From: Craspedostauros australis
Taxonomy: Eukaryota
Direction of reading: 5' to 3'
Assembly (NCBI GenBank): GCA_030167865.1
Contig: JALAGF010004940.1
Span: forward strand, 1-39,258
Length of the DNA: 39,258 nt
This document shows positions 4,575 to 37,714 of this stretch, in pieces (the stretch's first letter is position 1; each line of letters opens with the position of its first letter). The notes under the pieces were generated by a model. That model saw only the letters and a program-made list of their open reading frames with translations, was not told the DNA's origin and did not search any database. A program made the position numbers and the translations under genes.

Positions 4575-4601
4575 GGTCGCAGTCGTGTTGCTGAGTCCTC
4601 C

Positions 4602-11211: not shown

Positions 11212-12030
11212 CTATGAATCAGAATCCACCGCTGGACCATCAACCGCCGGACCACCAACGATACTGTACCCACCATCCACATAGATCGTCTGACCTGTGA
11301 TGCCTGTCCCACCCATCGACAAGAATGACACCGTGTCCGCAACCTCATCCGCTGTCACATTGCCCAACGGTGCACGCTCCTGCATCTCCTGTCGCATAGC
11401 TCCAAAGTTGGCGATGCCACCCTTGGCCGCCACCGTGTTTAAGGGACCCGCGCTGACCGCGTTGACGCGCACAGGTACCATCTCCAGTGCCAGACCGCGC
11501 ACGATGGATTCCAGGCTGGCCTTGGCCGGTCCCATGACATGATACGATGGGATGGCGCGCACGGCTCCCAAGTACGTCAAGGCTGTGATGCTGGAGTGGC
11601 GTTCCATGTGAGGCTGTGCATGTCGTGCCAGTTCGATGAGGGAGTATGCTGAGATGGCATGGGCCTCTTGATAGTCTTCCAAGGTGGTGTTCAGCAAGGG
11701 TCGGTGCAGGTTGTTGGCAAATGCCACGGAATGCACGATGGCATGCAATGGACGATGGTGTTGTGACACGTGTTGAAAGAGTTTTGGGATATCGTGTTGG
11801 ACATCGCAAATGAGGCCTGTCAATGACGGATGTTGTTGTTGTTGTTGCTGCTGTTCGGTGTGCTTGTGCATCATCCGTTCCACCTTGGTGCCGATCTTTT
11901 CATTCTGATACGTGAGGATGACATCGTAGTTGTTGTTGAGAAAGGAGCGGACGCAGCTCCATGCGATGGATCTGGCATTCGCAACACCCAAGACCAATGC
12001 GAGCGGTCGTTGAGCTTGTTGGATGCTCAT
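11212..12030 (-). CDS. fabI: Enoyl-[acyl-carrier-protein] reductase (NADH), bacterial FabI-type SDR, 272 aa
   Basis: GVANARSIAW, CDV, IVHSVAFA, ISAYSL, LTYLG...YHVMGPAKASLE (Y-x6-K), VNAVSAGP, GITGQTIYVDGG. Confidence 0.92.
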   Translation of the reverse strand: MSIQQAQRPLALVLGVANARSIAWSCVRSFLNNNYDVILTYQNEKIGTKVERMMHKHTEQQQQQQQHPSLTGLICDVQHDIPKLFQHVSQHHRPLHAIVHSVAFANNLHRPLLNTTLEDYQEAHAISAYSLIELARHAQPHMERHSSITALTYLGAVRAIPSYHVMGPAKASLESIVRGLALEMVPVRVNAVSAGPLNTVAAKGGIANFGAMRQEMQERAPLGNVTADEVADTVSFLSMGGTGITGQTIYVDGGYSIVGGPAVDGPAVDSDS

Positions 12031-12334
12031 TTTTGTGGTGTGCTCTCGTGAGAGAGTTGCGGATGCAGAGCGGCTCTCTCATCTGGAATGCTTCGTGGTG
12101 TGGTCTCCATTGGAGATGATCACGCTTGTAACCATATCCAATGCAACGCAACGCAACGCAACTCCGATCTCAGTCACAACCACGAAGATCGCAGATGTGT
12201 TGATGATGTTGATGGTGTTGATGGCTTGGTTGGAGCCGAAAGATCTCATTTTCTGAGATTGTTCGGTTTCGTCGAAGTTTGTGTGACTCGTGAATGGACC
12301 CATCGGAGTAAATGTGAGTCCGGTGATGAATCCG

Positions 12335-14907: not shown

Positions 14908-17649
14908 TCACTTCGATGATGTGTGTCCGAAGTCGGTTCGAACTGAAGAGTACTTCAACTGGACACCGAAACTCTTGGTCTTCCCACACCCGCCACAGTC
15001 AATACCCACGTCCAACACCGCCTTCGAAGCGGTGGACTTACCGATCGGCATCGTGATGTATGGCTCAAGGTGGGTCTCATCAGCTTCTGCTTCTGCTGTG
15101 GCTGCATTTCTAGCTTCCTCTTCGATTGCTTCCAGCTTCTTTTCGATCATGGCTTCGAATTCTGCCAGGATTTCTTGAAGGAACTGTTCTAGATCTTCCT
15201 CTGCAACGTACTTGGGTGCCACTTGTTCCAACACTTTCATGCAGACAGCCTTCATCACGTCGTAGTGTTCTCTGCCCAATGCATCCGCGACAGCACGATC
15301 ACCAGCAACTCTATCTCTTTCGCTTTTGGCCGCATCAGCATCGGCCTGGCTCATCGTTTGATCCACAAGGCTTTCTGGTCGGCTCGCTACGCAATACACG
15401 CGATCATTGCCAAATGGAATTCGGAGGAGCTCGTGAAAGATCCTGTCCTTGGTGTTGCGGATGGATTCGTTGGAAATCTGCCCATCGGTTGTGTAATCCT
15501 TTGCCTGGATGCAGATGGTGACGAGCTTGAGGTTCTTCCACACAATCTTGTTGCCGACCTCCTCCTTTTGAGCAACCACGACGGACACGTATCCATCTGC
15601 CAAGTTGCTGTTGCCTTCTGCAACGCTTGCGATTGGAGGGTGGAACGCCTGCGTCCCTTCCTCCAGCGTTGGGTTTGTCTTGATGGCATTTCGCAGGTCC
15701 CAGAGTCCCTTGAGGTAGTCCTTGTCAATGGTCAGCGTTGCTTCGTCACTATGCAGGAGAGGGGCATACTTCTGGAGTTCATCAGTGTTGTTGGGGGGAT
15801 CAGGATTGTTGTGTTCGACCTCCCAGCCTTCCAGGCCATCCCAGTAGGTTCGGTTCCGTCGCTGCTGCACTTGTTGCTGCTGCTGCTGTGGTTGTGTTCG
15901 CCCCAATGACAACTGCATGGGCGACTTCTGAAGGTACATGCCCTTCATGGCAAACTCTGATGGAAAAGCAACAGGGTACCATCCGCGAAGCCCTTCCCAC
16001 GATTCTGCGATGTCCTTGTCCACGAATGGAGATGTGACAGCATCACCATCTCTCACCTCCGATGCGTACATCGCAGCGCCATCCTCGAGCATCGATTTCA
16101 GATCCTTTCGATGTGTTGCCTCAACGGTCGTGGCTGCTGCTGTCACATTGGAGAGGAATTGGACTGCGAGCGCTTCATATGCGAATGGTGTCGTCTCCAA
16201 AGATTCATCGAGATGTGCCAGGACTTCTCCACCAGCGATAATCCAGCTACAGAGTCGCTGTATGGCAGGATCCATGAGGAAAGGGTACATCTCAACTCTC
16301 CCGTCCTCCTGTTCTGCCATCGTGGAGAGATCCGCGAATGATGGGATTGTCAGGAGCCCATACTCTCCAATGAGATCGTGTATCTCGACGCGGTCCTCAC
16401 CAAAGTGTTGGAAGTGGATGGCATCGTTCAGAACCTTCTCTCGGATGGAATGGGCATCCTCACCAGGTGACACCTTGATCGTTTGCTGGAAGAGGAGGGC
16501 AGCGTACGCGCTTGCCACAATCTGCTGGCGTGCGTGTGGGGACTTCCACAAGGACTCCATGCCGTTGGTTGTGCAGAAGTCCTCAAAAACAGTTGAGATG
16601 ATCTTGACTTGATGGCGGGGATCATGATAGGAGAAGTTCGCGGCCGCAAGCTGGAACACCAAGGCAGAGGTCATTCTTGAGTTGTGGTGGACGATATCGT
16701 TGAGGAGGGGATATTCTGGAAGCTGTTGATAGGGTGGAAATTTGTTCTGACTGTCTGGATACTCTCGACAGAGAACGTTGTAGACATCTTCAACCTGTCT
16801 TTGAGCAATTGGTTGGAGTTGCTCGAAGTTGTCAGGCAAGCTTCCTTCCGTGTCACTCTGGAAGCATGTACCTGCAATGGAGAACACCACCCGCAGTGAT
16901 TCCTTCTGCGTGTTGATCCACTTGATCTCATCGTGACAGTTTCCGCTTCCGTTTGGGTTGTTGCATCCTGTCATGATGAATGCGGCAAGATCCTGACCAA
17001 GATCTTCATAGTCGCAGATGATCTCATTGATGAGGTTGGGTTGGGATCCTGCTTCATCGATGGCGACGACGATTCGCACCATGTCTTCCGTGGAGTTGCG
17101 GTGCTTGATCATTTCAGCGATCTCGCCAAAAAGAGCTCGGATGCTCTCGTCTTGATCCACAAGCTTGTGAATACTTTTCTTGAGACAGATTCGTGCTTCG
17201 TCTTCCCGAACATAGCCCCACTCAGCAGTAGGAATGTCCTCGTCGACAACCAGTTGGATGGAAAAGGCAGCATCTCTTGAGTACGCACTCGCTGCGAGCT
17301 CGGCTGTCTTTCCGCTCCCGCTGGCAGAGCAGTACAGCAGCACCCGATTACGGAATGCCTCGTCAGTTGCCTTTTCCATGTACAGCTTCTTTGGCGATCT
17401 TCCATGTTTGGCTTGATGTCGGAACTGAGGGTTGCCGATGTAGAAGACCTGGAGAGAAGAATGCCATTCGCCGTGTCTGGTGCAAACTTCCACTTGATGG
17501 AGTGTTGGTGTTGTCTTTTCACGGATGGCATTGTGCAACTTGTTGATGATGACATCTTGGAGTGGCACCGGTGACCTTTCGTTGGAAGGTGCGATTCCTG
17601 TGTATGATCGCTCGCTGCTCCTGTTCTTGCGCTTGTTGTTCTTCCCCAT
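14908..17649 (-). CDS. P-loop NTPase + PD-(D/E)XK-like nuclease protein (Crinkler/RHS-type-like), copy B, intact, 913 aa
   Basis: Uninterrupted ORF from MGKNNKRK (ATG homologous to copy A's start). Walker A at ~17305-17328, Walker B at ~17048-17068, ADGY...IQAK at ~15499-15600, then a C-terminal coiled-coil-like acidic helix. Confidence 0.8.
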   Translation of the reverse strand: MGKNNKRKNRSSERSYTGIAPSNERSPVPLQDVIINKLHNAIREKTTPTLHQVEVCTRHGEWHSSLQVFYIGNPQFRHQAKHGRSPKKLYMEKATDEAFRNRVLLYCSASGSGKTAELAASAYSRDAAFSIQLVVDEDIPTAEWGYVREDEARICLKKSIHKLVDQDESIRALFGEIAEMIKHRNSTEDMVRIVVAIDEAGSQPNLINEIICDYEDLGQDLAAFIMTGCNNPNGSGNCHDEIKWINTQKESLRVVFSIAGTCFQSDTEGSLPDNFEQLQPIAQRQVEDVYNVLCREYPDSQNKFPPYQQLPEYPLLNDIVHHNSRMTSALVFQLAAANFSYHDPRHQVKIISTVFEDFCTTNGMESLWKSPHARQQIVASAYAALLFQQTIKVSPGEDAHSIREKVLNDAIHFQHFGEDRVEIHDLIGEYGLLTIPSFADLSTMAEQEDGRVEMYPFLMDPAIQRLCSWIIAGGEVLAHLDESLETTPFAYEALAVQFLSNVTAAATTVEATHRKDLKSMLEDGAAMYASEVRDGDAVTSPFVDKDIAESWEGLRGWYPVAFPSEFAMKGMYLQKSPMQLSLGRTQPQQQQQQVQQRRNRTYWDGLEGWEVEHNNPDPPNNTDELQKYAPLLHSDEATLTIDKDYLKGLWDLRNAIKTNPTLEEGTQAFHPPIASVAEGNSNLADGYVSVVVAQKEEVGNKIVWKNLKLVTICIQAKDYTTDGQISNESIRNTKDRIFHELLRIPFGNDRVYCVASRPESLVDQTMSQADADAAKSERDRVAGDRAVADALGREHYDVMKAVCMKVLEQVAPKYVAEEDLEQFLQEILAEFEAMIEKKLEAIEEEARNAATAEAEADETHLEPYITMPIGKSTASKAVLDVGIDCGGCGKTKSFGVQLKYSSVRTDFGHTSSK

Positions 17650-18937
17650 TGTTGCGACTGCTCTTGCGGAGTGTGGTATTCCAACTCTTGGGGATGCCGT
17701 CTGCTGTATGTTGTGGGTGGATGGTTGCAGGCTTCCTGTGACGTTGGAAAGCACTGTGGGATATGCGCTGCACGTCTTGAGGAATCAGTGAGAATGGTCA
17801 TGGGAGAAAACGTGACGAAGGCGACGAAGCTCAGCAACAAGCAACAGCATACAACGAGCAACAGGTACAGTTGAACGGAAGGGCAAGAGAAAGACAGATT
17901 GTGAGAGATGAATGGCAGCTGGTTAGATTTGGAATGGCACGATCAACCCCTGTCCCACAATGGATGAGCCTCCGGTACGATACAATACAACGCAATACCA
18001 TACCACATTCCATCTTCTGGAATTGAACGGGCCTGACACAAGGACAACCACCTGCACAAGCACAATCTCCATCACACCAACAAGACATTGTGATGGGCCT
18101 TCCTTGTCATGTTTGTGTCATTGGTAGTGTGAATGTGCATGTCAGTGTCAGTGTGAATGTTTGTCGGTGGAGTATTGATTCGTCCTCTCAGTTCGACGAA
18201 GTTGGAATGGTTCGAAGTACAATACGATGTCAGGCCTGCATCCAAACATATCCTTACCTTTGCTCTCTCCCAGAGCCTTCCGTTTGCTGCATGTGTTGCT
18301 TGTGTTGTCGGAGTTATGGACAGCACTGAGGCTCGCATCTTCGCTCGCTTCAAGCGCGGCAGAAAGCGCCGACATCCAATCATATCCTTGCCTTTGTTCT
18401 TTCCCAGAGCGTTGCGTTGGTTGCTTGTGTTGTCTGTTGTCGGAGTTGTGGCCAGCACTGACACTCGTTTCTTTGCTCGTTTCAAGTGCGGCAGAAACGT
18501 GCCGAGATGCGGACTTCGTGGTTGCTACGCCAAAAAGGGAATCAAGATAGTGGATTTTCCTGTCTTGTCGTTGTCACGACGGTCTTCTTGTTGGAGGAGT
18601 TGGTGTTCTGTGGATGCTGGCGATCCTTTCGCTGCCAGTGGGACTGTCGTCGTCACTGGCGGCAATGCAGATGAAGATGCAGACGAAGATGATGACGAGG
18701 AAGATAGCCTTACTTCTGAGGAAGGTTGATGTTTATGGTCCTGTTTGATTGATGTCCGCAATTGTGTTTGATTTCTTTCGTCGTCGTCGTTGTTGTTGTT
18801 GTTTCTTTCGCCATGGTGAAAGCCTGTTGTGTTCTGAAACGATCTGTTGCGTTTTCCAGGTTTTCGGTGTAACCTTGGAAGTTGTCAGGTTTTGGCGCAA
18901 CCTCTTCGAACTCTGTGTTGCTTCAAGTGTGTGACGC
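15125..18937. repeat. Segmental direct repeat, copy B (~3.8 kb)
   Basis: Colinear with 6439-10648, but lacks ~400 nt present in copy A at ~8914-9321. Confidence 0.95.
18072..18814 (-). pseudogene. Degenerate ORF-like region upstream of NTPase copy B (paralogue of 9545-10527)
   Basis: Same repeated peptides as in copy A, with an in-frame TAG at 18525-18527. Confidence 0.3.
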
Positions 18938-19245
18938 GGTCTTCGTATCTGTCTAGTCTCCGACTCGTTCGATCGCGGTTCCAATCGAAAGAACGTTAAC
19001 GAACAAAATGTTCTTGAGATGTCTATTCTTTGAAAGCTGCGTTAAATTACTTTTATCTGTATACTTCCATTCGCAGATTATCTGCAATATACATAAATCA
19101 AACTCAACTCCCAAAAAGTATAACTGTATCCAATATGAATATATCGCAACCCTAAGGATCCACGCAGGCAACAACTGGCCGATCGCTTTCTTTCTTCCAT
19201 CACATGACAACGTATCGTAGCACTTGCGAATAGGAACGAGCACCA

Positions 19246-20598
19246 ATGCCAACGATGCGTTCCATCCAGACATACACGATCTTGGGATCACTGCTGCTGC
19301 GCAACACGAGCTCCTTGGCTCGAAACACTGCGGCTCCATCTCGAGGAATTGCGCCTCGCTGCGCATCTTGGGCGGTCAGCACAGCGAGCTTTGGTGGTTG
19401 CCTGCGATCGCGATTCTTGCCGTTTGCATCGCTGCGCCAGGGTTCCTGTGTTGCAGTTGCATCATCATCATCGACACGCCTTGCGTCGTCGCTGACTGAT
19501 GCACCAGCCATCCAAGATGACATCGCAGACGACGAGCTCCCGCCGGACTTTCCACGACGCGACGATGTGCTGACCGCCATCCTTGCGGCGCGCCGTGCCA
19601 GTCGGATCACCGTGGCCTTGCAACCATCGCACGATGGCAACAAGGATTCCATCGCGACCGTCGCCAAAGCCGATGCTTCGCCTGTCACGGTGGCCGATTT
19701 CGCGTCGCAAGCTGTCGTGCTGCAGCACATCCACCAACAGTATCCATCCGACTCGTTCATCGCCGAAGAGAGTTCTCAATCTCTGCAGCACGATGCCGAT
19801 TTGGCCGACTCGGTCCTGCAAGCGGCATCGGCGTTCATCGATGATCCGCAGGCGTTGTTCGACGCCATCGATTTGGGAAAGATGTACGAACGCAATGCAA
19901 CGAATCCATCCCGCGTCTGGTGCTGCGATCCCATCGACGGAACGAAGGGATTCTTGCGCGGCCGTCTGTCCGGCGGACAGTACTGCATCGCAATTGGATT
20001 GATCGAAGATGGCATCCCGACCATCGGCGTGCTGGCATGCCCCAACCTCGAGGCAGGCACACAACGCGGATGCATCTTCGTGGCGTCGCAAGGCGGCGGC
20101 TGTTACCAGCTGCCGTTGGTGGCCGGGACCGCACCGACTGTCCGACTCCACGGCGGCGCAATCACATCGCCCGCTGACGCCCGATTCTGTATCGGCGTCG
20201 AAATTGGCTTCGGTGATCCCGATGGCAAATGCAAGGAGATGGCCAAATTGCTGCACGAGGACGCCATCGATCCCGATACGGGCGATATCGCCAAGGCCCT
20301 GCGCATCGACAGCCAAGCCAAGTACGGCGTCATCGCTCGCGGGGGTGCGGAGTTGTACGTGCGATTGCCCAAGAAGGGATACCGCGAATGGATCTGGGAT
20401 GTGGCGCCTGGCGTCGTGGTTCTGGAAGAGGCGGGTGGGAAGGTGACGGACACAAATGGCGAGGCATTGGATTGCGGGTTGGGAGCACAGCTCGCGCCTC
20501 ACGTGGAGGGTGTCTTGGGTAGCAGCGACGTCACGCTACATGCCGCGCTGGTGAATTCCTACCAAACGCAAGAGGCTGCAAGAAGGGATTCCGAGTGA
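19246..20598 (+). CDS. SAL1: 3'(2'),5'-bisphosphate nucleotidase (SAL1/HAL2/MET22 family, inositol monophosphatase superfamily) with a probable organellar targeting peptide
   Basis: KADASPVTVADFASQA, IAEE, WCCDPIDGTKGFLRG, QYCIAIGLIEDG, IDSQAKYG, YREWIWDVAPG. The ~85-aa N-terminal extension is S/R/A-rich. Confidence 0.92.
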   Translation: MPTMRSIQTYTILGSLLLRNTSSLARNTAAPSRGIAPRCASWAVSTASFGGCLRSRFLPFASLRQGSCVAVASSSSTRLASSLTDAPAIQDDIADDELPPDFPRRDDVLTAILAARRASRITVALQPSHDGNKDSIATVAKADASPVTVADFASQAVVLQHIHQQYPSDSFIAEESSQSLQHDADLADSVLQAASAFIDDPQALFDAIDLGKMYERNATNPSRVWCCDPIDGTKGFLRGRLSGGQYCIAIGLIEDGIPTIGVLACPNLEAGTQRGCIFVASQGGGCYQLPLVAGTAPTVRLHGGAITSPADARFCIGVEIGFGDPDGKCKEMAKLLHEDAIDPDTGDIAKALRIDSQAKYGVIARGGAELYVRLPKKGYREWIWDVAPGVVVLEEAGGKVTDTNGEALDCGLGAQLAPHVEGVLGSSDVTLHAALVNSYQTQEAARRDSE

Positions 20599-20709: not shown

Positions 20710-23700
20710 TTAGGCGGCAGCGCTCTTGTGCTTGTGTGATACGCGCTTCTTGCTGCTGCCATGCGCTGACTGCTGCGGCAACAGACTATCGCCGGAGTGC
20801 TCCGTCTGGCTCAGTGCGACGAGTCGAATTCGTCTGCTGCTCTTTGGCTTCACCGGCGACATCGGCGACTTGTCCGGGCTGTTGTTGCACATCACGATTC
20901 GTTTGGATTTGACACGCTGCAACTGCGCTTGCTCGTCCCTCGAGCTGTGCCCGAACGTGGAATCGGAATCGGAGCCGCTGCTATCCGACAAGACGTCTGC
21001 GCTGGCCACGCTGTGCCGTGACCGGGTCAGGCGATTGACGTCGGCCGGGCTAACGAGATGTTCGTTGCGTGGCGCCATCTTCTTTTTCCTCTTTTTCTTC
21101 TTTTTGAAACCAAAGCCCTGCACCTGCTGTTGCTCCTCTTCTTCTGATTCCGAGTCGCTGGAATCCGAAATCACGGCACCTCCGAACTTCAGGTTGACTT
21201 CTCGCGGCGACAGAAGACGCCTGGCCGAAGCGTTCTGTTCCGTCGGCAACTTGCACGCCTTCGCGGAGGTCTTGGTACCGCTGCGATCCGAGGGACTCTG
21301 CGATTCGCTGCGATCTTTGCTCTTGTCCTTGCGCTTCTTCTTCTTGCCATTTCTGTGCGACTTCTTGGCTTTGCGCCTTTCCTTGCTTTTCTTCGTCTTT
21401 TTGGAGCTGCGGCTCTTCTTACCGCGGCAGTCGTCTGTGGATTGCAAATCGTCGTCGTGGTGGCTGCTGTCCACGCAGTCGCTGGTGACATCGCCCGTCT
21501 TATCATCATCATCATCGTCGGCATCGAAGCTGCCCTTCAACGCGATCTCGATATCATTGTAGGACCCGTTGGTGCCCCAGAAGTCCGCTTTGGCCTTTGC
21601 ATCCGCATCGAGATGAATTTCTTGCGGCACCTGATCGGGACTGGGGTCCTTGCTTTGGCCAACGGATTTGGGAATCCTTTTCGGACTGGATAGACGGCGC
21701 GGCGTTGCGGGAGCCTCGAGACGGCGACGGCGGTTGCGTTCCGCGACTTCCTCCCGGCGTTTTTCATGACGGATATCGCGCTGCATGTGCTCTTCTTCGA
21801 CCGCGTGCACTTTCTGCACGCCAGCTTCGAACTGGGCGTCGTCCAAGAGCTGTCCGTTCTTGACGTTCGCAAAGACGCCATCGTTGAGGTCGTCGTCCTC
21901 ATCCTCCAACCATTCGCCATCCTCGTCGAAGAACTTGTCCATCCTCCAGCTGCGCTTCGGGAGCTTGGGGGCGTCATCGCGACAGGACTCGTTGCTGCTG
22001 ACGAGGGCATCGCTCATGCTCGTGTAGGATTCGTCGAACGTGGATGGAGTGACCGTGGAGGATGTCTTGCCGGATGGGCTGTTGCGGACGGGTGCGCCGA
22101 CCAACGATCGGATGCGCTCGAAGAGCTCCGATCCTTGCACGGACGACTCGTCCTCGTATTCGAAGTTGTAGTTGTCTTTGAGCGGCTCGACGATGTCGTA
22201 GCTCTTGGAGCCATCGAGCGATGGTACCTCGACTGGTTTGGACGCGATGCTCTGATCCTTGTCCGCTGGTGCATCCTCCTGTTTCTCATCGTCATCTGGC
22301 GGCAGATCCGGGTTATCACGCGTGCGTCTTGGCAGTGCCTGGACCATGTCGGGTGACAGATCCTTCCAGACGCGGCGCACGCGCCACGACAGGTGGGAGG
22401 GATCCGGACTTCGGCTGGGCGTGATCCAAACATCGGGACGCGTTTGCGCCGAGCGACTCGTTCTCTTGGAGCCATCGTTGCCGGCCGAATGGCGGCTTGG
22501 CTGGGAGGGGGCCATGTCGCTGGGCATGCCGCTGGACATGCCGCTGGTCGTGCTGAGGGCTCCGCTCCTGTGCGGCGGTGGCATGATCATGCCGTCTCCC
22601 GTGGCGAAGCGGTCCTCCGATGAGGCGAAGCGATCGAGATCGAGGGTGGTGGGGCCGTTGTAGCGGATTCGGTAGCTGGTCTGCTTCCTGGATGGTTCGC
22701 GGTAGCTGCCGGAACTGACGGAGGAGAATGACATCCCATCGAAGGCATCGTCGATGTGCAGGATCCACGTGTCAAAGCTTTCGGATCCGACCGATGTTAG
22801 GCAGTCATCTTGCGCTTGCGGCGCTTGAGCAGCAGCAGTGGCCACTGGTTGGCTGGCTTTGACATCGACGACATCCAACGATTCAAAGTTCTCCACAATT
22901 TCACCATCCTGCGTCTTCTCCGCGGAGGTTTGATCATCAAAGCCCCTCATGATTTCATCGACTGTGTCCCGCACTTGCTTCTTCAATGTCGCACTGGCCA
23001 CGCACGGTGCGCTGTCCTCGCCATCTGTGGGATGCGTGTCGATGGAGAACTCGCCGCTGTTGCACATGTCATCCTCCTCCTCATCGACGACGACGCTCTG
23101 CCGCCGCGTTTCGTTGTGATGGGCGCTCTTGCCGCGCGACGTGGCGGGCAAGGACTCGATGTTCATGGACGCGGCGCTGGCATTGTGCGTTTCGGCGTTG
23201 TTGGAACTATTGGTCGTCATGGAGGAGGAGGATCCGCTGGACGATATGGTGGGAGAAATGGGCAGCTGGTTGGTGGGCGGCATGGAGGCCTGCGCGTTCT
23301 TGGTGACAGGCGACAGCGAGGAGGATCGTCGAAAGGACAGGTACGGGTTGCGTTGGGGCTGCACGATCAACGGAGGTTGCGGTGACATGACGGCACCAGC
23401 GGCGCGCTCGTAATTCTTCCGGCGGTCCTTGACGGAGAGTCCAGGAGACAGCGGCAGATCACGCAGACTGGCGTTCTGCGGCATTCTCGTTGGCGAGTGG
23501 TAGACGGGAGAGCCGACGGGGACGACGGCGCCGCCCAACGCAGCCCTTCGCGTGCTTGGGCTCTGCGGTGGAGACACGGTGGACAAGGCCAGCGACGAGG
23601 CATTGGTGGTGCGAGAATGCCATAGCCGTCTCCTCTCCTCGACTTTCATCGCCGACGCCAATGCGTCCATCGTGGGTTGCTGTTGGAGCGGACGCTGCGG

Positions 23701-23988
23701 AGACGAGGGCACGGACTTGTTGCCATCGGTGGTCGTGTCCCATTGGGCATCCTTCTGCTGCTCCTGCTGGGCCTGCAGGTTGCGCAGCGACAACGACATC
23801 CAGGCACTCGATGGATCGACGTTGCTCAAGGAGGTCTTTCGTCGCAGGAACTGCGTGCGATGCACCACGGGTTCTTCCTTGTCCTGCTCATTGTTGCTTC
23901 TGGGTGATGCTCTCTGTTCGTCATTCTGTTGTTGCTGCCGCTGCTGCTCCTGCTGTTGGCCTTGCACATGGAGAGGATGGGACATCAT
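20710..23988 (-). CDS. Large intrinsically disordered hypothetical protein, 1092 aa
   Basis: 3.3-kb ORF, rich in S/P/D/Q, with many SP sites and Lys-rich NLS-like tracts near the C-terminus; no recognisable folded domain. Confidence 0.85.
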   Translation of the reverse strand: MMSHPLHVQGQQQEQQRQQQQNDEQRASPRSNNEQDKEEPVVHRTQFLRRKTSLSNVDPSSAWMSLSLRNLQAQQEQQKDAQWDTTTDGNKSVPSSPQRPLQQQPTMDALASAMKVEERRRLWHSRTTNASSLALSTVSPPQSPSTRRAALGGAVVPVGSPVYHSPTRMPQNASLRDLPLSPGLSVKDRRKNYERAAGAVMSPQPPLIVQPQRNPYLSFRRSSSLSPVTKNAQASMPPTNQLPISPTISSSGSSSSMTTNSSNNAETHNASAASMNIESLPATSRGKSAHHNETRRQSVVVDEEEDDMCNSGEFSIDTHPTDGEDSAPCVASATLKKQVRDTVDEIMRGFDDQTSAEKTQDGEIVENFESLDVVDVKASQPVATAAAQAPQAQDDCLTSVGSESFDTWILHIDDAFDGMSFSSVSSGSYREPSRKQTSYRIRYNGPTTLDLDRFASSEDRFATGDGMIMPPPHRSGALSTTSGMSSGMPSDMAPSQPSRHSAGNDGSKRTSRSAQTRPDVWITPSRSPDPSHLSWRVRRVWKDLSPDMVQALPRRTRDNPDLPPDDDEKQEDAPADKDQSIASKPVEVPSLDGSKSYDIVEPLKDNYNFEYEDESSVQGSELFERIRSLVGAPVRNSPSGKTSSTVTPSTFDESYTSMSDALVSSNESCRDDAPKLPKRSWRMDKFFDEDGEWLEDEDDDLNDGVFANVKNGQLLDDAQFEAGVQKVHAVEEEHMQRDIRHEKRREEVAERNRRRRLEAPATPRRLSSPKRIPKSVGQSKDPSPDQVPQEIHLDADAKAKADFWGTNGSYNDIEIALKGSFDADDDDDDKTGDVTSDCVDSSHHDDDLQSTDDCRGKKSRSSKKTKKSKERRKAKKSHRNGKKKKRKDKSKDRSESQSPSDRSGTKTSAKACKLPTEQNASARRLLSPREVNLKFGGAVISDSSDSESEEEEQQQVQGFGFKKKKKRKKKMAPRNEHLVSPADVNRLTRSRHSVASADVLSDSSGSDSDSTFGHSSRDEQAQLQRVKSKRIVMCNNSPDKSPMSPVKPKSSRRIRLVALSQTEHSGDSLLPQQSAHGSSKKRVSHKHKSAAA

Positions 23989-24617
23989 GGTTTGTGGGTT
24001 GATCTGTTGATCTGTTGACTGATTGGTTGTGTGCTTTTATGCAATGGCAATGACACTGACGCTGTCGCTGGAGACGTGGCTCTGTGGGCGGTTTCTGTCA
24101 GTATCGCGTTGCAGAGAGGCTGGAGCTGCTTTCGTTTGTGACAGAAGTGGCAATCACAAGTGGCAATCACAATAACGATCGCAGCGGTGTTGCTACTCGA
24201 AGTGCCAGTATCGCGACTCGTGACCGATCTGTGAGCCGCGTGTTCCAGAGACGCTGCGTGTCTGTAATAGGATTGCGAGGTGAGCAATGGCCACACAGCA
24301 AGCGGTGGAATGGAATGCGCTGTGATTGGTTGGGGTGTGACGGGTCTCACGTGTGGTTGGGATGTTGCAGATCGACTCTGTCGGATCGGATCGGAACGAC
24401 GCAGGAGAGTGTGTGGACGAAGGCGCTGGTCGTGAACCAATGTGTGTGGTTGTGTGGCAGACAGTGGCAGACAGCGTCAGCCACTGAGATTTGAATTCCG
24501 GTGGTCGTAGTAGAACTCGTATCGAGTATAATACGATCAACGACCTGTTCGTGGTAGAACACACACGCAGAGTGTGGTTGTTTCGCCGTTGTGGATGTGT
24601 GTGATGGTTGAGCCCGG

Positions 24618-27686: not shown

Positions 27687-29336
27687 TCATTGCTCCACAG
27701 GGCCATCCTCCGTGGATGGTGTCGGTGACAGATTGAGGACGTCGTCATCGGCGAGTCGGTCGCTGTCGTCGAGACCAGGAATCTGGGGAACGCCTCCGGT
27801 GGAATCTCTCTTGACGCGGTAGTTGGGCCGCGAAGGGCTCTTCTTGGGTGAGATCCATTCTTCCGGTCGGCCGTAGGCACGCTCCTTGGCCTTCATCATG
27901 GGGCTCTTCTTCTCCTTCTTGCGATCGCCTGGAGTCAGCGGCAGGAAGTCGTGTGGTCTGTCCAGCATGCTCTGGCTGTTGTCGAGAGCGCTCATGCTCT
28001 TCCAGAGCTGCTCCTGCTCGTTGAGCGCGCGCGGCTGCGTGATGACGGGGTACGGCTTGGGGTTTCTGGAACTGTTGCTGCTGCTGTTGATGCTGCTGCT
28101 ATTGATGCTGCTGTTGCTTGTGTTCATCTGGTCGGCGGCGGCCTTTGGCCTGTTCTTCTTGGCGGCCATTTTCTTCTTGAGCTTGGCCGATCTGGAGCTG
28201 TTTCCGCTCTTCTTCGATGTGGTTGGCACGGGGCTCGCGGGCGTCGGCGACTTCTTGAGGAACGGAATGGCGTTGAGGCTGCCGTAGAAATCAACCTCGT
28301 TGGGGCCCTTGCGCCTTGGAGACTTGACGGGGGTTCGGATCTCCACCTCGTCGTCCTCCTCCTGGCGGTCCGTCTTGTCTGCCTCGTCGTCCGGCAGCTC
28401 CGGCGGAGGGTTCTTGAGAGCCTCTTCTTCTGCCTTGAGAGCCGCTTCCCACTTCTTCTGCATGAGGTTGTTGGTGACGCGTCTCCTGGCACGTTCCATG
28501 GTGGCCAGGCCGGGCTCGTTCTCATCGAGCCAATCGGGCTCCTGCGTGCCGGAGGACTTGATCTTGCTGAGATTGTCGACCTGCTGCACGACCAGCAGAT
28601 CGCTGGCATCCGGTGGTTGTTCTCTGCGGATGTTCCAATCTCTCATGGCGACGTTGTCGGTGTGCAGCCACTTCTCGTCGACGTAGACTGGATTCGTTGA
28701 TGGCTCTGTGGCCTGGTCAGCCTCGACTTCATCGTTTGGCTTGGAATCTGGCTGTTCGGCAGCAGCGCTGCTTCCATTGCCGGCGTCTGCGCTATTGTCG
28801 TGGTCGTCATCGTCCAGACTTGCCAGCTGCATGGCGGCTCGCATTTCCTTCCGACGCTGGTGCTGCTCCTGCTCGTAGGCAAGCCGTTCGTCCTCCTCCA
28901 TCTTCTGCAGTTCGGCAGGATCGAGTTCTCGCAGGTACTTGACGTTGACGCGGCTGTGGACGCGACCGCTGGGGCTGAGCCAGGCATCGGGACGCCCGTA
29001 GGCACGCTCGCGGCACTTCTTCATGTCGGCGACGGGCGTCATGGCGCTGGCCCTTCTGGTGCTGCTGTGGGTGTTTTTGGTTTTGCTGCCGCCGGCGCTG
29101 GAAAGGGAGGCACGGCGAGGTTGTCCTGGACGCAGAGGCAGGAATTGCTTGGGTCGGTCGGTCGTGAGGCCATCCGTATTGCCTCCCAAGAAGCCGCTGC
29201 TCGTGGTGATGGCGTTGCTGTCCAGCACATCAGCGTTCACCATCTGTTGCTTGCGGCCATGGCTCGTCTGCTGTGGTGTGTGGAATACAGGTGCAGCTGG
29301 GGGCGCCACTGGCATGGTTTGTTGTTGAGTGGCCAT
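27687..29336 (-). CDS. Disordered hypothetical protein, 549 aa, with a duplicated DRPxxFLPLxPG...ERAYGRPxxW[LI]SP module
   Basis: 1.65-kb ORF with GC3-rich codons; the module occurs near both termini. Confidence 0.87.
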   Translation of the reverse strand: MATQQQTMPVAPPAAPVFHTPQQTSHGRKQQMVNADVLDSNAITTSSGFLGGNTDGLTTDRPKQFLPLRPGQPRRASLSSAGGSKTKNTHSSTRRASAMTPVADMKKCRERAYGRPDAWLSPSGRVHSRVNVKYLRELDPAELQKMEEDERLAYEQEQHQRRKEMRAAMQLASLDDDDHDNSADAGNGSSAAAEQPDSKPNDEVEADQATEPSTNPVYVDEKWLHTDNVAMRDWNIRREQPPDASDLLVVQQVDNLSKIKSSGTQEPDWLDENEPGLATMERARRRVTNNLMQKKWEAALKAEEEALKNPPPELPDDEADKTDRQEEDDEVEIRTPVKSPRRKGPNEVDFYGSLNAIPFLKKSPTPASPVPTTSKKSGNSSRSAKLKKKMAAKKNRPKAAADQMNTSNSSINSSSINSSSNSSRNPKPYPVITQPRALNEQEQLWKSMSALDNSQSMLDRPHDFLPLTPGDRKKEKKSPMMKAKERAYGRPEEWISPKKSPSRPNYRVKRDSTGGVPQIPGLDDSDRLADDDVLNLSPTPSTEDGPVEQ

Positions 29337-29463
29337 TCTGTTGCTGCTGTTGCTGTTTGGTTTGTTGTTGTATTGGTATTATAACTTTGTGCGAGTATGG
29401 GCTGTGCTATGTGGTGTATTGTTTGTGCTGTTGTTTGTATTGTGACTCTCTGCCTACCTTTGC

Positions 29464-32633: not shown

Positions 32634-33716
32634 ATGACAGACATTCTCTTTGATGAAGAGATCATTGAGATCGAATACGATTCGGATGGCGATGAGCTGG
32701 TGGAGATCATCGAGGAGGTGTACGAGACAGACTCCGAGGGCAGCTACTACGAGGAGGAGGAGATCAACGATCTGCCTGCCGTGATGGAGGAGGAGGATGA
32801 AGAGTCGGACGGCGAGGACTTCAGCCTCAACCACCGATCCTTCTCCAGACGCCTCGACGAGGAGGCCAGCGAGGACCCCGCCTTCCACCGCAGCTTCAAC
32901 TCGGGCACCAACAACAGCGAGGGCGACGACAAGCACAACGATGCGAACAACAGCAGCTTCAGCAGCCGCGATGGAGGCAACATGAGCAATCACAGCAACG
33001 CGCACGACGACGGTGATGCGGATGGTGGCAAGCCAGCATGGGCCACGATGCGGCTGAAGAAGACATCGATGGGTCGCATGCTGGAGAAGGACGGCAATCT
33101 GGCAGCGCCCATCACCTTCACTCCCTTCAAGAACACGGACTTCAAAAATGGCGTCTGCAACCCGACCCTCCTCAAGAAGACGCCCAAGGGCAACCGCGTG
33201 CTCAACGGCGAGTACATTTCGGCGCCCATCACGCACATTCCCAAGAACACCAACTTCAAGAACAAGGTCGTCGATCCCACCAAGCTGAAGCACACCGAAA
33301 AGGGCGAAACACTCAAGAAGGGCGCCTACCTGTCCGCACCCATCACACACATTCCCCAAAAGAAGACGCAGCACAGCAACCCCATCGCCAGACCGGATAT
33401 CCTGCGTCCGACAGAAGAAGGCGAGCACGTGAAGAAGGGCGAGTACCTGTCCGCGCCGATCACCAAGATCCGCGAACACACGCAGAAGCAAAAGAAGATG
33501 AAGAAGAAGCTCGTCACGCGCAAGGTCAAGAAGAAATCGTTGGATTTGGAAGGTGAAGGGGCATTGCGGAAGGCAGGCGAGATGCTTGCCAAGGCCTCTG
33601 GGGCCAAGCAGCAACAAGGCGAGAATGCGGCGTCAGATTCCGAAATTCATGCGACGATGACGACGCTCAATTTAGAAACCAACGTCGAGCAGCCTGTGGC
33701 GCAGCCGGCCGCATAA
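32634..33716 (+). CDS. 39-aa-repeat protein 1 (acidic N-terminus, 4 APIT repeats, Lys-rich tail), 360 aa
   Basis: ATG follows a caacaacaac leader. KPAWATMRLKKT..GNLAAPITFTPFK; LLKKTPKG..ISAPIT; DPTKLKHTEKG..LSAPIT; LRPTEEG..LSAPIT. Confidence 0.9.
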   Translation: MTDILFDEEIIEIEYDSDGDELVEIIEEVYETDSEGSYYEEEEINDLPAVMEEEDEESDGEDFSLNHRSFSRRLDEEASEDPAFHRSFNSGTNNSEGDDKHNDANNSSFSSRDGGNMSNHSNAHDDGDADGGKPAWATMRLKKTSMGRMLEKDGNLAAPITFTPFKNTDFKNGVCNPTLLKKTPKGNRVLNGEYISAPITHIPKNTNFKNKVVDPTKLKHTEKGETLKKGAYLSAPITHIPQKKTQHSNPIARPDILRPTEEGEHVKKGEYLSAPITKIREHTQKQKKMKKKLVTRKVKKKSLDLEGEGALRKAGEMLAKASGAKQQQGENAASDSEIHATMTTLNLETNVEQPVAQPAA

Positions 33717-34781
33717 TCGTTGAAGGGGACGGCGTATCGTATCTATGACATGGATCCTTGGTGTCAGCAGAAACAAATGAGGCAATCGACTGATTTGATT
33801 AGCGTGGCAAACATGCGAGGAACGGGGATTTTCTGCGGTACCATCCAGATACGCATTGCCAACTGCCCCAAAGTGGATGCACAACGAGAGTCCCGCGATG
33901 GTGTGACGACAGATACGTCAGCATCGACAATTGAAACGTCGCGCGAGAGAGACAGGAGTTACGTACAAGCATCCATTGCACAAGGCAAACCACACGATGA
34001 TTGTTCAAAATTGCATTAATTTAGAGAAATGGATGTTTCATGCAATACTTGAGAGCATGCTATCGATCCCGACAGGTTGTCCATCACCATTGTTGTTGTT
34101 GTTATTATTATTGTTGCTGCATCTCGTGTTGTCCGTGTTGGAGCATTGGTGGGATTGAAGTGAGGCGTTGAGCATGCCAAAGCGTATGCAATCTTTTTGG
34201 CTCTTTTGTGTTCCGCCAACAACCCTTGACATCATTTCGCGGTGGTGTTGTCCGTCTCCATCATCGTCATCACCATCGTCACTGTCGTGATGTCTCGATG
34301 TCGGCTGCGCTTAAATGTTATCCGCACGTGACAGCATCCAATCGTGGTTGTTCTGAAAGGAATCTTGTGACCAAGAGGTATCTTGTGGAGATGACCATCG
34401 TTGTGGGAATGTTCGGATCCTCGTTTCCGATGCGCAAGGTAAGCAACGTGCCGAAGAGGCATGCCACCAACGGCGCCCTTCTTATCTCCCACGCAGGCGT
34501 CTGCTGCGTTGTGTGGGAGCGTGTGGTTGCTCTTGCTTGCGGAGTATGAGACATGAAGCAGTGCGAGACAGAGGGTCGATGGTCGATACGAACGCAGCGT
34601 GGTCGTTGTGGATGCTGTTAGTTGTGATGCAATCTGATTCAATGCGATGGGAGTTGTCATCGTGAGACATCTTCGTCGTGAGTTCTCATAAAATCGACGC
34701 ATCAACCTTCAAAAGAGCAAAATCAACACATCGCAACGCAACATCGCACCCATCACCACCACCAAACACAACAACACCAAG

Positions 34782-35564
34782 ATGTCAGACACCATAGAAG
34801 CAGAAATCGTCGACCATGGCGAAGAGGAGGCGGCCTTCGGCTGGGAGAAACCCGCATGGGCCAAGGGTGGCGTCAAGCTCCGATCAACAGGAAAGGCCGG
34901 AGCTATGAAGAAGGATGGCAATTTGGCAGCCCCCATCACCTTCACGCCATACAAGAGCCAGGACCACAGCAACAAGGTCGCCAACCAGGAGAAGTTGCGA
35001 TCCACGGGCGTCGGCGCCGCTGTCAAGTCCGGCAATGATCTCGCGGCGCCCATCACCTTCACGCCCTTCAAGAATCAAGATCACACCAACAAGGTCGCCA
35101 ATCAGGAGAAGTTGCGATCCACGGGCGTCGGCGCCGCTGTCAAGTCCGGCGAAGATCTTGCCGCACCCATCACCTTCACGCCCTACAAGAACGACGACCA
35201 CACGAACAAGGTCGCCAACCCACAGAACCTGAAGCACTCCGATGTCGGCGCCGCTGTCAAGTCTGGCGAGGATCTCGCCGCGCCGATCACCTTCACCCCC
35301 TACAAGAACGACGACCACACGAACAGGGTGGCAAATCCACAGAACCTGCAGAGAACCGATGTCGGTGCTGCCGTCAAGTCTGGGGAGGACATCGCAGCCC
35401 CCATCACCTTCACGCCCTTCAAGAGCGACGACCACACCAACCACGTCGCGAATCCAAAGAACCTCAGACAGACCACCGCTGGCCAAAAGGCCAAGACGGA
35501 TGGCAACCTCGCCATGCCCATCACGAATATCCGCAGCGTCCGGGCCAAGGACATCAAGCGGTAG
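34782..35564 (+). CDS. 39-aa-repeat protein 2 (6 APIT/MPIT motifs, 117-bp period), 260 aa, intronless
   Basis: WEKPAWAKGGVKLRST followed by near-identical units LAAPITFTP[YF]KxxDHxNxVANxxxL[RKQ]x[TS]xVGAAVKSGED. Confidence 0.92.
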   Translation: MSDTIEAEIVDHGEEEAAFGWEKPAWAKGGVKLRSTGKAGAMKKDGNLAAPITFTPYKSQDHSNKVANQEKLRSTGVGAAVKSGNDLAAPITFTPFKNQDHTNKVANQEKLRSTGVGAAVKSGEDLAAPITFTPYKNDDHTNKVANPQNLKHSDVGAAVKSGEDLAAPITFTPYKNDDHTNRVANPQNLQRTDVGAAVKSGEDIAAPITFTPFKSDDHTNHVANPKNLRQTTAGQKAKTDGNLAMPITNIRSVRAKDIKR

Positions 35565-36315
35565 GCTCATGGTCTGCCAATTTCGATACGGCACCATGCT
35601 CATGACGGCAACAAAATCCACAAGAAGTTTGCACACATCACAAAGACTGTACAGCATGAGAGGATGATGACGATGACGATGACGACGACCATGATGACAC
35701 AAGAAGGCGCAATTTGGTGACCTTCCAAGTCAACGATGACGAACGAGCCCAATGACGGGAATTCGCCACAAACATTGGCCGCATGGGCATCAACATGCCG
35801 TGCCGCACTCATCCGTCATCGTCGCTTAATCTGCCACTGCCACTTATTTTACGCACTTGATTATTCATATTTTAAGATTTTAGAGAATACGTCTTGCAAT
35901 TCGCAAATTCGGTCACCGCATTGGTTTGTCTCCAGCTTTCCATTTTGCGCTCTCTCTGTCTTTGTCTCTAGCCTGAAGCGTGCAACTAAGATCATGCAAT
36001 CGAACGAGTCAAAAAGGCATCCATCAGTGATGTCACAATGACCCTTTCTCGACAAAGATCTTCCCCTGTGCAAGGGACAAATGCCAAGAGAGAATGCCGG
36101 CGACAATGGTGCAAACCACCGCGGTTGCACGAAGAGCGGCGCGGATGGTGGAGGCAAAGAAAACAAGAAGCAAACATCTCACGAGGCGCAGCGGAATTCT
36201 GCCACGAACAGCAACACCCGCAGAGGAGGCGAAGGCACGCCATTGCACAACAACAGCAACGCAAGCCAAAGCAACGGCAACTACAGAACCGCAAGGAGTT
36301 CCGAGCGGAGGCACC

Positions 36316-37714
36316 ATGGCGGACGACGGATCAGAGTACGAATCCGGCTCGGAGTACGAGTCGGGATCCGAGTACGAGGAATACGAGGAGGACGTTGAGG
36401 AGTACGTCGAGGAGGAAGAGGACGAGCATGTCCCCATCCGCAACATCACAACCGGCGTCGAGCAGACCCGGATCTCCCAGCCACCACCGCAGCAGCAGAA
36501 GAAGGAGGAAGAAGAGGAAGAGGAGGAAGAAGACGATGGCCTGTGGGAGAAGCCGGCATGGGCGAAGGGAGGCATGAAGCTGCGAAAGACGGGCCTTGGC
36601 GATGCCATGAAGAAGGACGGAAACTTGGCCGCGCCAATCACCTTCACACCCTTCAAGAGCGAGGATCACAGCAACCAGGTGAGTGCAACGAGGATTGCGC
36701 ATTGGTCTCTTCATTGTGTGTTTGTATCTGCACAGCTCTGTCTAATGAGACCTCCGGTTCGGATGAGAAATGAGAATGCAGGTCTGATCCGAGATGTACA
36801 TCCTCAGCCACGTAGAGTATGCTTTCATCTCACCATCGTTCTCACCATTGTTTTCTGTCCACTGTTTACCGCCCAACATCTACACTGCCTCTTGCCAACT
36901 GTGTTCGCCTTGCGGTTGCCCGACTCCAACCATACACACTTCCGCACTTCGGCATCCAGGTCGCCAACCAAAACAGACTCCGCTCGACGGATGTCGGAAG
37001 AGCTGTCAAGTCCGGTGAGGATCTTGCCGCACCCATCACCTTCACACCATACAAGAACGACGACCACACAAACAGGTATGTTTCGATGCTCGGGCAATCA
37101 ATCAACAAGTGTTTTCCTGTCTCGAGGTCGTCGCCTGTCTCGAATGGGTAGTTTGATGCTGTTGCTTGTGCCATCTCTACTGCCCCCGTCGGCTCTGTTT
37201 TCTTGCGTCTCCAGAGCTGTGTGCAAATTGTGGAACTTCCCTTCCTGCTTGACAGGCCAACCACCGGGTTGTCGTTGAATAAACTTTGATGCCCCATGAA
37301 TCAATCCATGTACTGATCTCACGAATTTTCCACCTGCTTCTGGTGTTGTTGCTGCTGCTGTTGCACCCTGATCTTGATTGGACCAAACCGATGGAACGCC
37401 TCCATTGCTCTGCTCGACTCCGCTCCACTTTCATGCACTCCCACGTAATGATCCGCAGAGTTGCCAACCCCAGCAAGTTGCGCAACACCGATATCGGAGA
37501 TGCCGTCAAGTCTGGAGAGGATCTTGCCGCTCCAATCACCTACACGCCATTCAAGAATGACGACCACACCAACTATGTTGCCAACCCCACCAAGCTCAAG
37601 ACCACCCAGGAAGGTGAGTTGGTCAAGTCCGGCGGCAACCTCGCCGCCCCCATCACCCACATCCGCAAGGTCAAGAAGAAGAAGAAAAAGAAGAAGGCTG
37701 CCCCAGCCTCCTAG
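36316..37714 (+). CDS. 39-aa-repeat protein 3, three exons join(36316..36678,36960..37075,37459..37714), 244 aa
   Basis: Donors CAG/gtgagt (36679) and CAG/gtatgt (37076); acceptors atccag/ (36959) and ccgcag/ (37458). The spliced length of 735 nt restores a continuous repeat matching paralogue 2. Acidic N-terminus and poly-Lys C-terminus. Confidence 0.88.

Follow-up and report, generated by a model that had tools for sequence, protein, structure and literature searches.

A diatom family of tandem 39-residue repeat proteins with a tentative link to actin

Three co-oriented genes on the + strand of a contig of the diatom Craspedostauros australis (GenBank assembly GCA_030167865.1, contig JALAGF010004940.1, positions 1 to 39,258; this whole 39,258-nucleotide stretch is referred to as the window) encode proteins with four, six and four copies, respectively, of a 39-aa unit. 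The genes lie at 32634-33716, 34782-35564 and 36316-37714, and comparison with database sequences supports a lineage-specific tandem-repeat family that belongs to diatoms. Disordered proteins with tandem motifs and a probable affinity for the cytoskeleton are a known kind, while this motif and this family are new; among the papers listed in searches of open-access literature, we found none on such diatom proteins. As a reading that we consider possible rather than probable, we propose that the family may represent a new type of multivalent actin-docking repeat with its own motif. The repeat anatomy and its tightly held period, the conservation of the unit and the purifying selection on it, the basic charge of the arrays, a predicted lack of fold and the fusion of the array to a gelsolin domain in two relatives are the observations on which this proposal draws.

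Genes, repeat unit and family

The features of the cluster, all on the + strand, are as follows, where ORF stands for open reading frame, HMM for hidden Markov model and dN/dS for the ratio of nonsynonymous to synonymous substitution rates.

32634..33716, +: gene 1, single-exon coding sequence of 360 aa (ORF; start in agreement with relatives P0021 and P0037), made up of an acidic E/D/Y head (residues 1-131, net charge -38), a GGKPAWA cap, four units and a basic tail, KKMKKKLVTRKVKKK
33030..33494, +: gene 1 repeat array, four units with LKKT, LKKT, LKHT and LRPT, each followed by [AS]APIT
34782..35564, +: gene 2, single-exon coding sequence of 260 aa (ORF, Tandem Repeats Finder, unit HMM), with a short acidic head, a WEKPAWAKGG cap and six units
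34854..35555, +: gene 2 repeat array, six units of 39 aa each; dN/dS among units 0.11-0.24
36316..36678, +: gene 3 exon 1, 121 codons, with an acidic SEYE/E-rich head, a WEKPAWAKGG cap and unit 1
36679..36959, +: gene 3 intron 1, 281 nt, GT..AG, phase 0, at a unit border (a contig skips these 281 nt)
36960..37075, +: gene 3 exon 2, exactly one unit, unit 2 (sequence, regular expression, unit HMM, contig)
37076..37458, +: gene 3 intron 2, 383 nt, GT..AG, phase 2, at a unit border (a contig skips these 383 nt)
37459..37714, +: gene 3 exon 3, with units 3 and 4, the K8 tail and the stop codon
37715..38300, +: gene 3 3′ untranslated region of at least 586 nt (record 3 of run X1 extends to 38300 and further)

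An initial annotation of the window had described a tandem cluster of 4 + 6 + 4 units in three paralogues, each unit with L[KRQ]x[TS] followed by an APIT-type element, each array behind a (WE)KPAWA cap, and with E/D/Y-rich N-termini and poly-Lys C-termini in paralogues 1 and 3. This anatomy is recovered throughout by the ORFs, by a regular-expression scan and by a unit HMM. L[KRQ]x[TS] and then [AS][AMP]PIT are present in 14/14 units, with an identical offset of 16 residues from L to the first residue of the AAPIT-type element, and the unit HMM, run on all six frames of the window, returns exactly 14 units (E 7.7e-10 to 6.7e-16), every one of them within the three genes. Tandem Repeats Finder gives a period of 117 nt in gene 2 (4.6 copies, 82% matches). 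The unit period is 39 aa, with a single 38-aa step in gene 1, and an alignment of the 14 units needs no internal gaps and shows L, P, I and T as invariant and T, G and A as nearly so. All three genes have the cap: genes 2 and 3 share WEKPAWAKGG, and gene 1 has GGKPAWATMRLKKT. The net charges of the heads are -38 (gene 1), -7 (gene 2) and -28 (gene 3). Gene 1 carries the KKMKKKLVTRKVKKK stretch, and gene 3 has its K8 tail. For gene 3 the annotated units stand and the gene structure is refined: it has three exons rather than one ORF, and its spliced product is a protein of 244 aa.

The splicing of gene 3 is documented by a 1,643-nt contig of the public run X1, which joins across both introns and is 100% identical to the window (0 differences). 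Because this contig is identical to the window and skips 281 nt and 383 nt, both bounded by GT..AG, it stems from spliced RNA of this organism, the sole alternative being a processed DNA copy; the type of run X1 is RNA only by guess. This record (record 3) covers gene 3 from 36228 onward. Record 1 of the same run spans 33029-34080 with 0 differences, that is, the 3′ half of gene 1 and 364 nt past its stop codon, and record 2 spans 35599-35813, the 215 nt just 3′ of the gene 2 stop. The 5′ half of gene 1 and the coding region of gene 2 are without contig cover, repeats having been skipped in mapping, which is uninformative on their expression. We read the three genes as transcribed paralogues. 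An ATG at 36094 lies in frame with gene 3 and is probably unused, since relatives start just before the acidic stretch and cap and the run X1 contig begins at 36228; the second of these arguments is weak, as contigs need not start where transcripts do. Both gene 3 introns fall exactly on unit borders, with exon 2 amounting to one 39-aa unit, and genes 1 and 2 are intron-less. Array growth by exon or unit duplication, or else intron gain at unit borders, is what this arrangement suggests.

Sixteen unit pairs were compared for selection. In the 10 pairs within or between genes 2 and 3, pairwise dN/dS was 0.08-0.25, and in the six involving gene 1 or the last units it was 0.25-0.69. Gene 1 units are thus more diverged than those of genes 2 and 3, which differ from each other mainly at synonymous sites. 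The low ratios in genes 2 and 3 indicate that the units are real coding sequence under purifying selection.

How large is the family, and where does it occur? With gene 2 as the query, a 90%-clustered collection yielded 41 proteins of similar length at E<=1e-3, and 1.84 billion representatives clustered at 50% identity, scanned exhaustively, yielded 166 at E<=1e-3, of which 91 reached E<=1e-10 and 19 reached E<=1e-30. At E<=0.01 the unit profile matched 135 proteins, and many of these are short (77-146 aa) and hold two or three units; small forms of 93-132 aa with 2-3 units are common. The only members with an organism name come from Nitzschia inconspicua, Seminavis robusta and a Bacillariaceae metagenome-assembled genome (MAG), all of them raphid pennate diatoms, which supports the lineage-specific family that the initial annotation had inferred. 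Two further members are MMETSP transcripts without species names, and most sources are environmental assemblies, in which the family is abundant (166 clusters at 50% identity). No named member from non-raphid diatoms was found by searches that scored the 8,000 candidates sharing most words, which is weak evidence of absence.

Across the family (676 units in 198 proteins), the core of the unit reads L(94%)-[KR](83%)-x-[TS](94%)-x-x-G(85%)-x-x-[VLMA]-[KR](88%)-x-G(72%)-x-[ND](72%)-[LI](94%)-x-x-P(88%)-[IV](92%)-T(87%); the proteins being mutually related and retrieved by family searches, these percentages describe the family only and do not count independent events. The consensus core thus comprises ~21 residues (L-[KR]-x-[TS]-x2-G-x2-hydrophobic-[KR]-x-G-x-[ND]-[LI]-x2-P-[IV]-T), with L[KR]x[TS] as its best-conserved block. 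In the larger set of 836 units from 271 proteins, there are 1 to 12 units per protein, and the spacing from unit to unit is exactly 39 aa in 227/565 steps and 36-42 aa in 382/565. The cap, [WF]x[KR]PxW, is found in 232/271 relatives and usually precedes the core once per protein or per unit; in cap-type units, W or F stands 5-7 residues before L in 313/348 cases. One candidate, P0178, a bacterial RCC1/cadherin-like protein, was a false family match and was dropped before either set of units was counted.

Gene callers easily miss or mis-merge members of this family. When the source names of 10 proteins were looked up, only ‘hypothetical protein’ and, for P0021, a spurious ‘phage gpG-like protein’ came back. 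In Nitzschia inconspicua P0199 (822 aa), the last ~60 residues form a one-unit member with its own Met (MADEYEDDGLWEKPAWAKG...), fused to a Rit1/phosphatase-domain model; P0199 is probably a merged gene model, and its C-terminal part demonstrates that one unit of ~60 aa can exist by itself. More distant are P0028, P0036 and P0041 (164-238 aa), in which full units alternate with shortened ones (F-x-KP-x-W-T ... DLAKPITSLPH) and which end in the variant ...ARPIGGIKPVE. One of these three sits on a 2-Mb contig, and together they may be an early offshoot of the family or one from outside the diatoms.

The repeat arrays are basic (isoelectric point 9.4-10.0), and none of the three proteins has a hydrophobic segment fit for a signal peptide or membrane span (maximum Kyte-Doolittle 19-residue mean <=0.57). 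For these two reasons, the proteins are predicted to be soluble, to reside in the cytosol or nucleus and to suit an acidic partner. A plastid or secreted location was considered and ruled out, there being no hydrophobic N-terminus. AlphaFold2 gave no fold for gene 2 (34 sequences; mean predicted local distance difference test 57.8, predicted template modelling score 0.18) or for a 132-aa relative (80 sequences; 56.9 and 0.17), and the proteins are predicted to be intrinsically disordered. The sole recurrent element in these models is a 7-residue helix right after L[KR]xT (in gene 2, for example, at 76-82, 115-121 and 154-160), of low to moderate confidence, as in motifs that fold on binding. 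Structural look-alikes for gene 2 and P0200 were sought in the ESM Atlas, with no usable match.

The acidic head of gene 1 also holds a conserved strand-like module, IIEIEYDSDGDELVEIIEE (window 32634-32760, residues ~8-30), which recurs in long relatives as YEIEIVEDDGDADFYLEIVDGE and is shared by P0021, P0037, P0054, P0062, P0198 and P0269. Its spacing, D-x-D-x-D-x2-hydrophobic-x3-[DE], resembles that of an EF-hand calcium loop; Pfam returned no EF-hand match for the module.

Actin and competing partners of the array

What might such an array bind? A tightly held unit period is what a periodic target would lead one to expect, and the combination of fixed period, basic charge, disorder and variable valency agrees with binding to a polymer that is both periodic and acidic. 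Actin answers this description, and tubulin does too. A pointer toward actin comes from two relatives on two contigs, P0016 and P0020, in which the array follows directly after a Gelsolin domain (PF00626; E 1.7e-9 and 1.8e-9); they are the only relatives with this domain, which the three proteins of the window lack. The two proteins are orthologous, with 74% identity over a span that takes in the gelsolin domain, the linker and three units, and since two taxa share the fusion, an assembly artefact can be dismissed. Their gelsolin domain aligns best to the last domain (G6) of villin, at 636-718 of 823, and of gelsolin, at 636-709 of 729. Villin holds its F-actin-binding headpiece at that post-G6 position. 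In addition, the W or F found 5-7 residues before L in cap-type units resembles F-x4-LKKT in thymosin beta-4 and W-x4-LKK in the villin headpiece.

Under the tentative proposal of an actin-docking repeat, the unit core of ~21 residues would act as a short linear docking motif, with the remainder of the unit as a spacer. Each unit would dock on one actin protomer, and an array of 2-12 units would keep several protomers in register. This could happen along the filament, by side-binding that stabilises or bundles, like nebulin or the villin headpiece, or on monomers, by sequestering or clustering them, like multi-repeat thymosins and tandem WH2 arrays. In either case actin would be bound by a new motif having only the L-K-x-T element in common with WH2 and thymosin. 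A more specific version, which we hold to be unlikely, makes the family an independently evolved, diatom-specific actin-filament ‘ruler’ or stabiliser, in which each unit would grip a protomer via L-K-x-T...G...P-I-T, small proteins of 2-6 units, among them the three described here, would organise the stable, non-treadmilling actin bundles of the raphe used in gliding, and the gelsolin-fused form would be a villin analogue with the array replacing the headpiece.

Several points weigh against actin docking. The gelsolin fusion occurs in 2/~271 relatives, both of one lineage; a single fusion event is thin evidence, and it shows a shared process, not a shared ligand. No sequence-profile similarity of the family to any actin-binding module was found (0 Thymosin, WH2 or VHP matches in Pfam, none in the Protein Data Bank, PDB, at E<=10), L is preceded by N-P-x-x in the internal units, for which a long helix is not predicted, and we know of no actin-binding precedent for the second conserved half of the core (G...PIT). 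An acidic head followed by a basic repeat array is also the layout of microtubule binders of the tau/MAP type, and the poly-Lys tails could be nuclear import signals. A complex prediction of gene 2 residues 15-104 with ATP and a metagenome-derived actin (L019, 376 aa; not the organism's own), run without controls or family alignments, gave scores of 0.00 and 0.01 and a mark of 0.34, values that speak neither for nor against binding.

As a separate observation on actins, two giant-virus MAG contigs encode actin-like proteins (L001, 631-1770 on the - strand, and L002, 1249-2394 on the + strand; 379 and 381 aa) that are 65-70% identical to conventional actins.

Could the array instead serve a partner outside the cytoskeleton? 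It would then be a multivalent docking or regulatory scaffold, for instance a hub for a phosphatase or kinase whose phospho-acceptor would be L[KR]x[TS], or alternatively a phase-separating linker of the ‘stickers and spacers’ type. This alternative, which we rate as rather unlikely, would make sense of the T/S of the motif (94% of units), of the PIT threonine (87%) and of a valency that varies from 1 to 12 units. It also draws on an N-terminal module with SEKxNxKIx[FW] that is common to 10/271 relatives, all of them long forms (~480-780 aa; P0054, P0062, P0064, P0087, P0101, P0160, P0192, P0193, P0196 and P0269) and that fits the RVxF type of protein phosphatase 1 (PP1) docking motif. If that docking is real, the long forms would be like Phactr or neurabin, combining a PP1 anchor with a cytoskeleton-binding repeat. 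The three proteins of the window, however, are without this module, a hub needs no strict 39-aa period, no targeting peptide for an organelle condensate is present, and the gelsolin fusion points elsewhere.

Tubulin, as the other periodic acidic polymer, leads to microtubule-associated proteins (MAPs) laid out like tau, MAP2 or MAP4, in which the acidic head would be a projection domain and the basic repeats would run along the acidic tubulin lattice. An acidic head with a basic array, disorder and a fixed period match the general architecture of MAPs, yet no Pfam tubulin-binding repeat was matched, the unit logo shows no PGGG or KxGS signature, and the only domain fusion found is with gelsolin, an actin module. 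We regard this alternative as quite improbable.

Relationship to WH2 and beta-thymosin

The initial annotation had reached actin by another route, through homology of the unit to beta-thymosin and WH2 domains. On that account the proteins would be true, if very divergent, members of these families, inserting a helix and LKKT into the barbed-face cleft of G-actin and sequestering or nucleating actin like ciboulot, Spire, Cobl or VopL. WH2 consists of an N-terminal amphipathic helix of ~2-3 turns that enters the barbed-face cleft of actin, followed by LKKT/V, and in beta-thymosins LKKTET is followed by a C-terminal second helix ~10 residues on. The LKKT/V-type motif is found in 14/14 window units, and in the family L, K/R and T/S are conserved in 94%, 83% and 94% of 676 units. 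The 39-aa period is near the ~38 aa of multi-repeat thymosins, forms of 93-132 aa with 2-3 units are common, and the cap units, with W/F 5-7 residues before L and a G-rich turn, resemble the x-x-G-x-x-LKKT of WH2.

Beyond this block the likeness fades. Pfam contains Thymosin and WH2 models, and yet hmmscan of Pfam-A with four pieces of the window genes and 11 single units gave 0 Thymosin, WH2, VHP, RPEL, nebulin or tau-repeat matches at E<=10; none of these families was matched in 81 long and 97 short relatives (178 in all) at E<=1e-4 / 1e-3. The HMMER filters remove most matches above E~0.1, so this negative is not final. Among 177,635 distinct PDB sequences, the unit profile and the gene 2 protein found no thymosin, ciboulot, WH2 or actin-complex chain at E<=10; apart from one SAMHD1 fragment, all that came back were designed proteins (propeller/trefoil ones and one other). 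The designed beta-propeller and beta-trefoil matches (E 6e-4 to 0.011) were set aside as chance, with 3-5 bits per stretch summed over identical designed repeats. Weak Pfam lines for Med26, PTR, YceD and Presenilin in the window and Umbravirus_LDM in relatives were rejected, all of them being under the curated cut-offs.

The region before L differs as well. Internal units (11/14 here) read ..HTNKVANPxx-L, with Pro and Asn in the place of the WH2 helix; gene 2 has only 3-4 helical residues before L in the AlphaFold2 model (H25-28, 69-71) and the 132-aa relative has none. The logo of 676 units shows no conserved hydrophobic triad before L, and the W-x-K-P-x-W of cap units is ambiguous. Conservation then runs 17 residues past T (G, [KR]xG, NL, PIT), and for this G..[KR]xGx[ND]Lx2PIT half we know of no WH2 or thymosin counterpart. 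The 7-residue helix that AlphaFold2 places right behind L[KR]xT, with low to moderate confidence, may or may not correspond to the second helix of beta-thymosins, from which it differs in spacing. The arrays are basic while beta-thymosins are acidic.

The proposed homology is thus left without support, there being no Pfam or PDB match, no long helix and no match for half of the core; the lack of profile similarity to WH2 and thymosin, which the initial annotation had itself named as telling against its idea, is what the HMM-to-sequence searches returned. Its caution that the amphipathic helix before LKKT is not obvious was well placed for internal units, given their Pro and polar residues. The link to actin has gained an independent hint from the gelsolin fusion and lost its WH2/thymosin route, and the word ‘nucleator’ was pure inference. 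Since HMM searches are known to miss some divergent WH2 motifs, we consider homology unsupported rather than excluded: in one study, standard HMMs recovered 6/8 Drosophila motifs (PMC4314737). Taken together, true membership of these families strikes us as decidedly improbable.

Least probable are nuclear or chromatin-associated acidic-basic proteins, in which K8 at the end of gene 3 and KKMKKKLVTRKVKKK in gene 1 would be import signals and the strongly acidic E/D/Y heads histone-binding and chaperone-like, given that gene 2 and most small relatives keep the units without a long acidic head or poly-Lys tail and that no DNA- or histone-binding family was matched.

Significance, remaining window and known systems

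Raphid diatoms glide on two actin bundles under the raphe. If the family docks on actin, it would offer concrete knock-out and tagging candidates to the gliding field, and as a candidate actin-binding family named only from raphid diatoms so far it is worth a bench test. Raphe-associated actin bundles are described as central to diatom gliding and their architecture as unknown (PMC11420354). Whatever the partner, a strongly conserved linear motif of ~21 residues with a fixed 39-aa period and no described family represents a test case for motif-partner discovery.

Elsewhere in the window, an uninterrupted 890-aa ORF at 1932-4601 (- strand) contains a piggyBac-type transposase domain (DDE_Tnp_1_7, E 1e-15) and may be an intact or domesticated transposase. 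Four further open frames on the - strand, at 6718-9489, 14911-17784, 20713-24036 and 27690-29378 (924, 958, 1108 and 563 aa stop-to-stop), matched no Pfam family at E<=1e-3; GC content in the window is highest (0.57-0.62) where the frame at 20713-24036 is located. Two ordinary housekeeping genes encode an inositol monophosphatase family protein (19234-20595, + strand, E 7e-41) and an enoyl-ACP reductase-like short-chain dehydrogenase (11215-12078, - strand, E 1e-61).

How does the diatom unit compare with known systems? WH2 (PF02205) and its tandem arrays in Spire, Cobl and VopL share with it a short, disordered, repeated module with L-[KR]-x-[TS], present in several units, and the W/F and Gly-rich turn a few residues before L in the cap units are alike, too. 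In contrast, there is no profile match, the internal units are without an amphipathic helix, the core runs 17 residues past T, and the unit measures 39 aa as compared to ~17-27. Beta-thymosins (PF01290; thymosin beta-4, ciboulot, tetrathymosin) are likewise small and soluble, have 1-4+ units that repeat every ~38-39 aa, contain LKKT or LKHT and are disordered when free; they differ in giving no profile match, in the spacings from the aromatic residue to L and from T to Pro, and in that the diatom arrays are basic and come with acidic heads and poly-Lys tails. Villin is approached by P0016 and P0020, whose array occupies the headpiece position behind a G6-like domain, although that array is a disordered repeat and not a folded headpiece, has no VHP match in Pfam, and the window genes are without the gelsolin domain. 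Nebulin and nebulette, together with the tau/MAP repeats, differ from the diatom unit in that its logo has no SDxxYK or PGGG/KxGS and no Pfam match; what they have in common with it are basic tandem units of a fixed ~31-39 aa, thought to be placed one per polymer subunit and disordered off the polymer.

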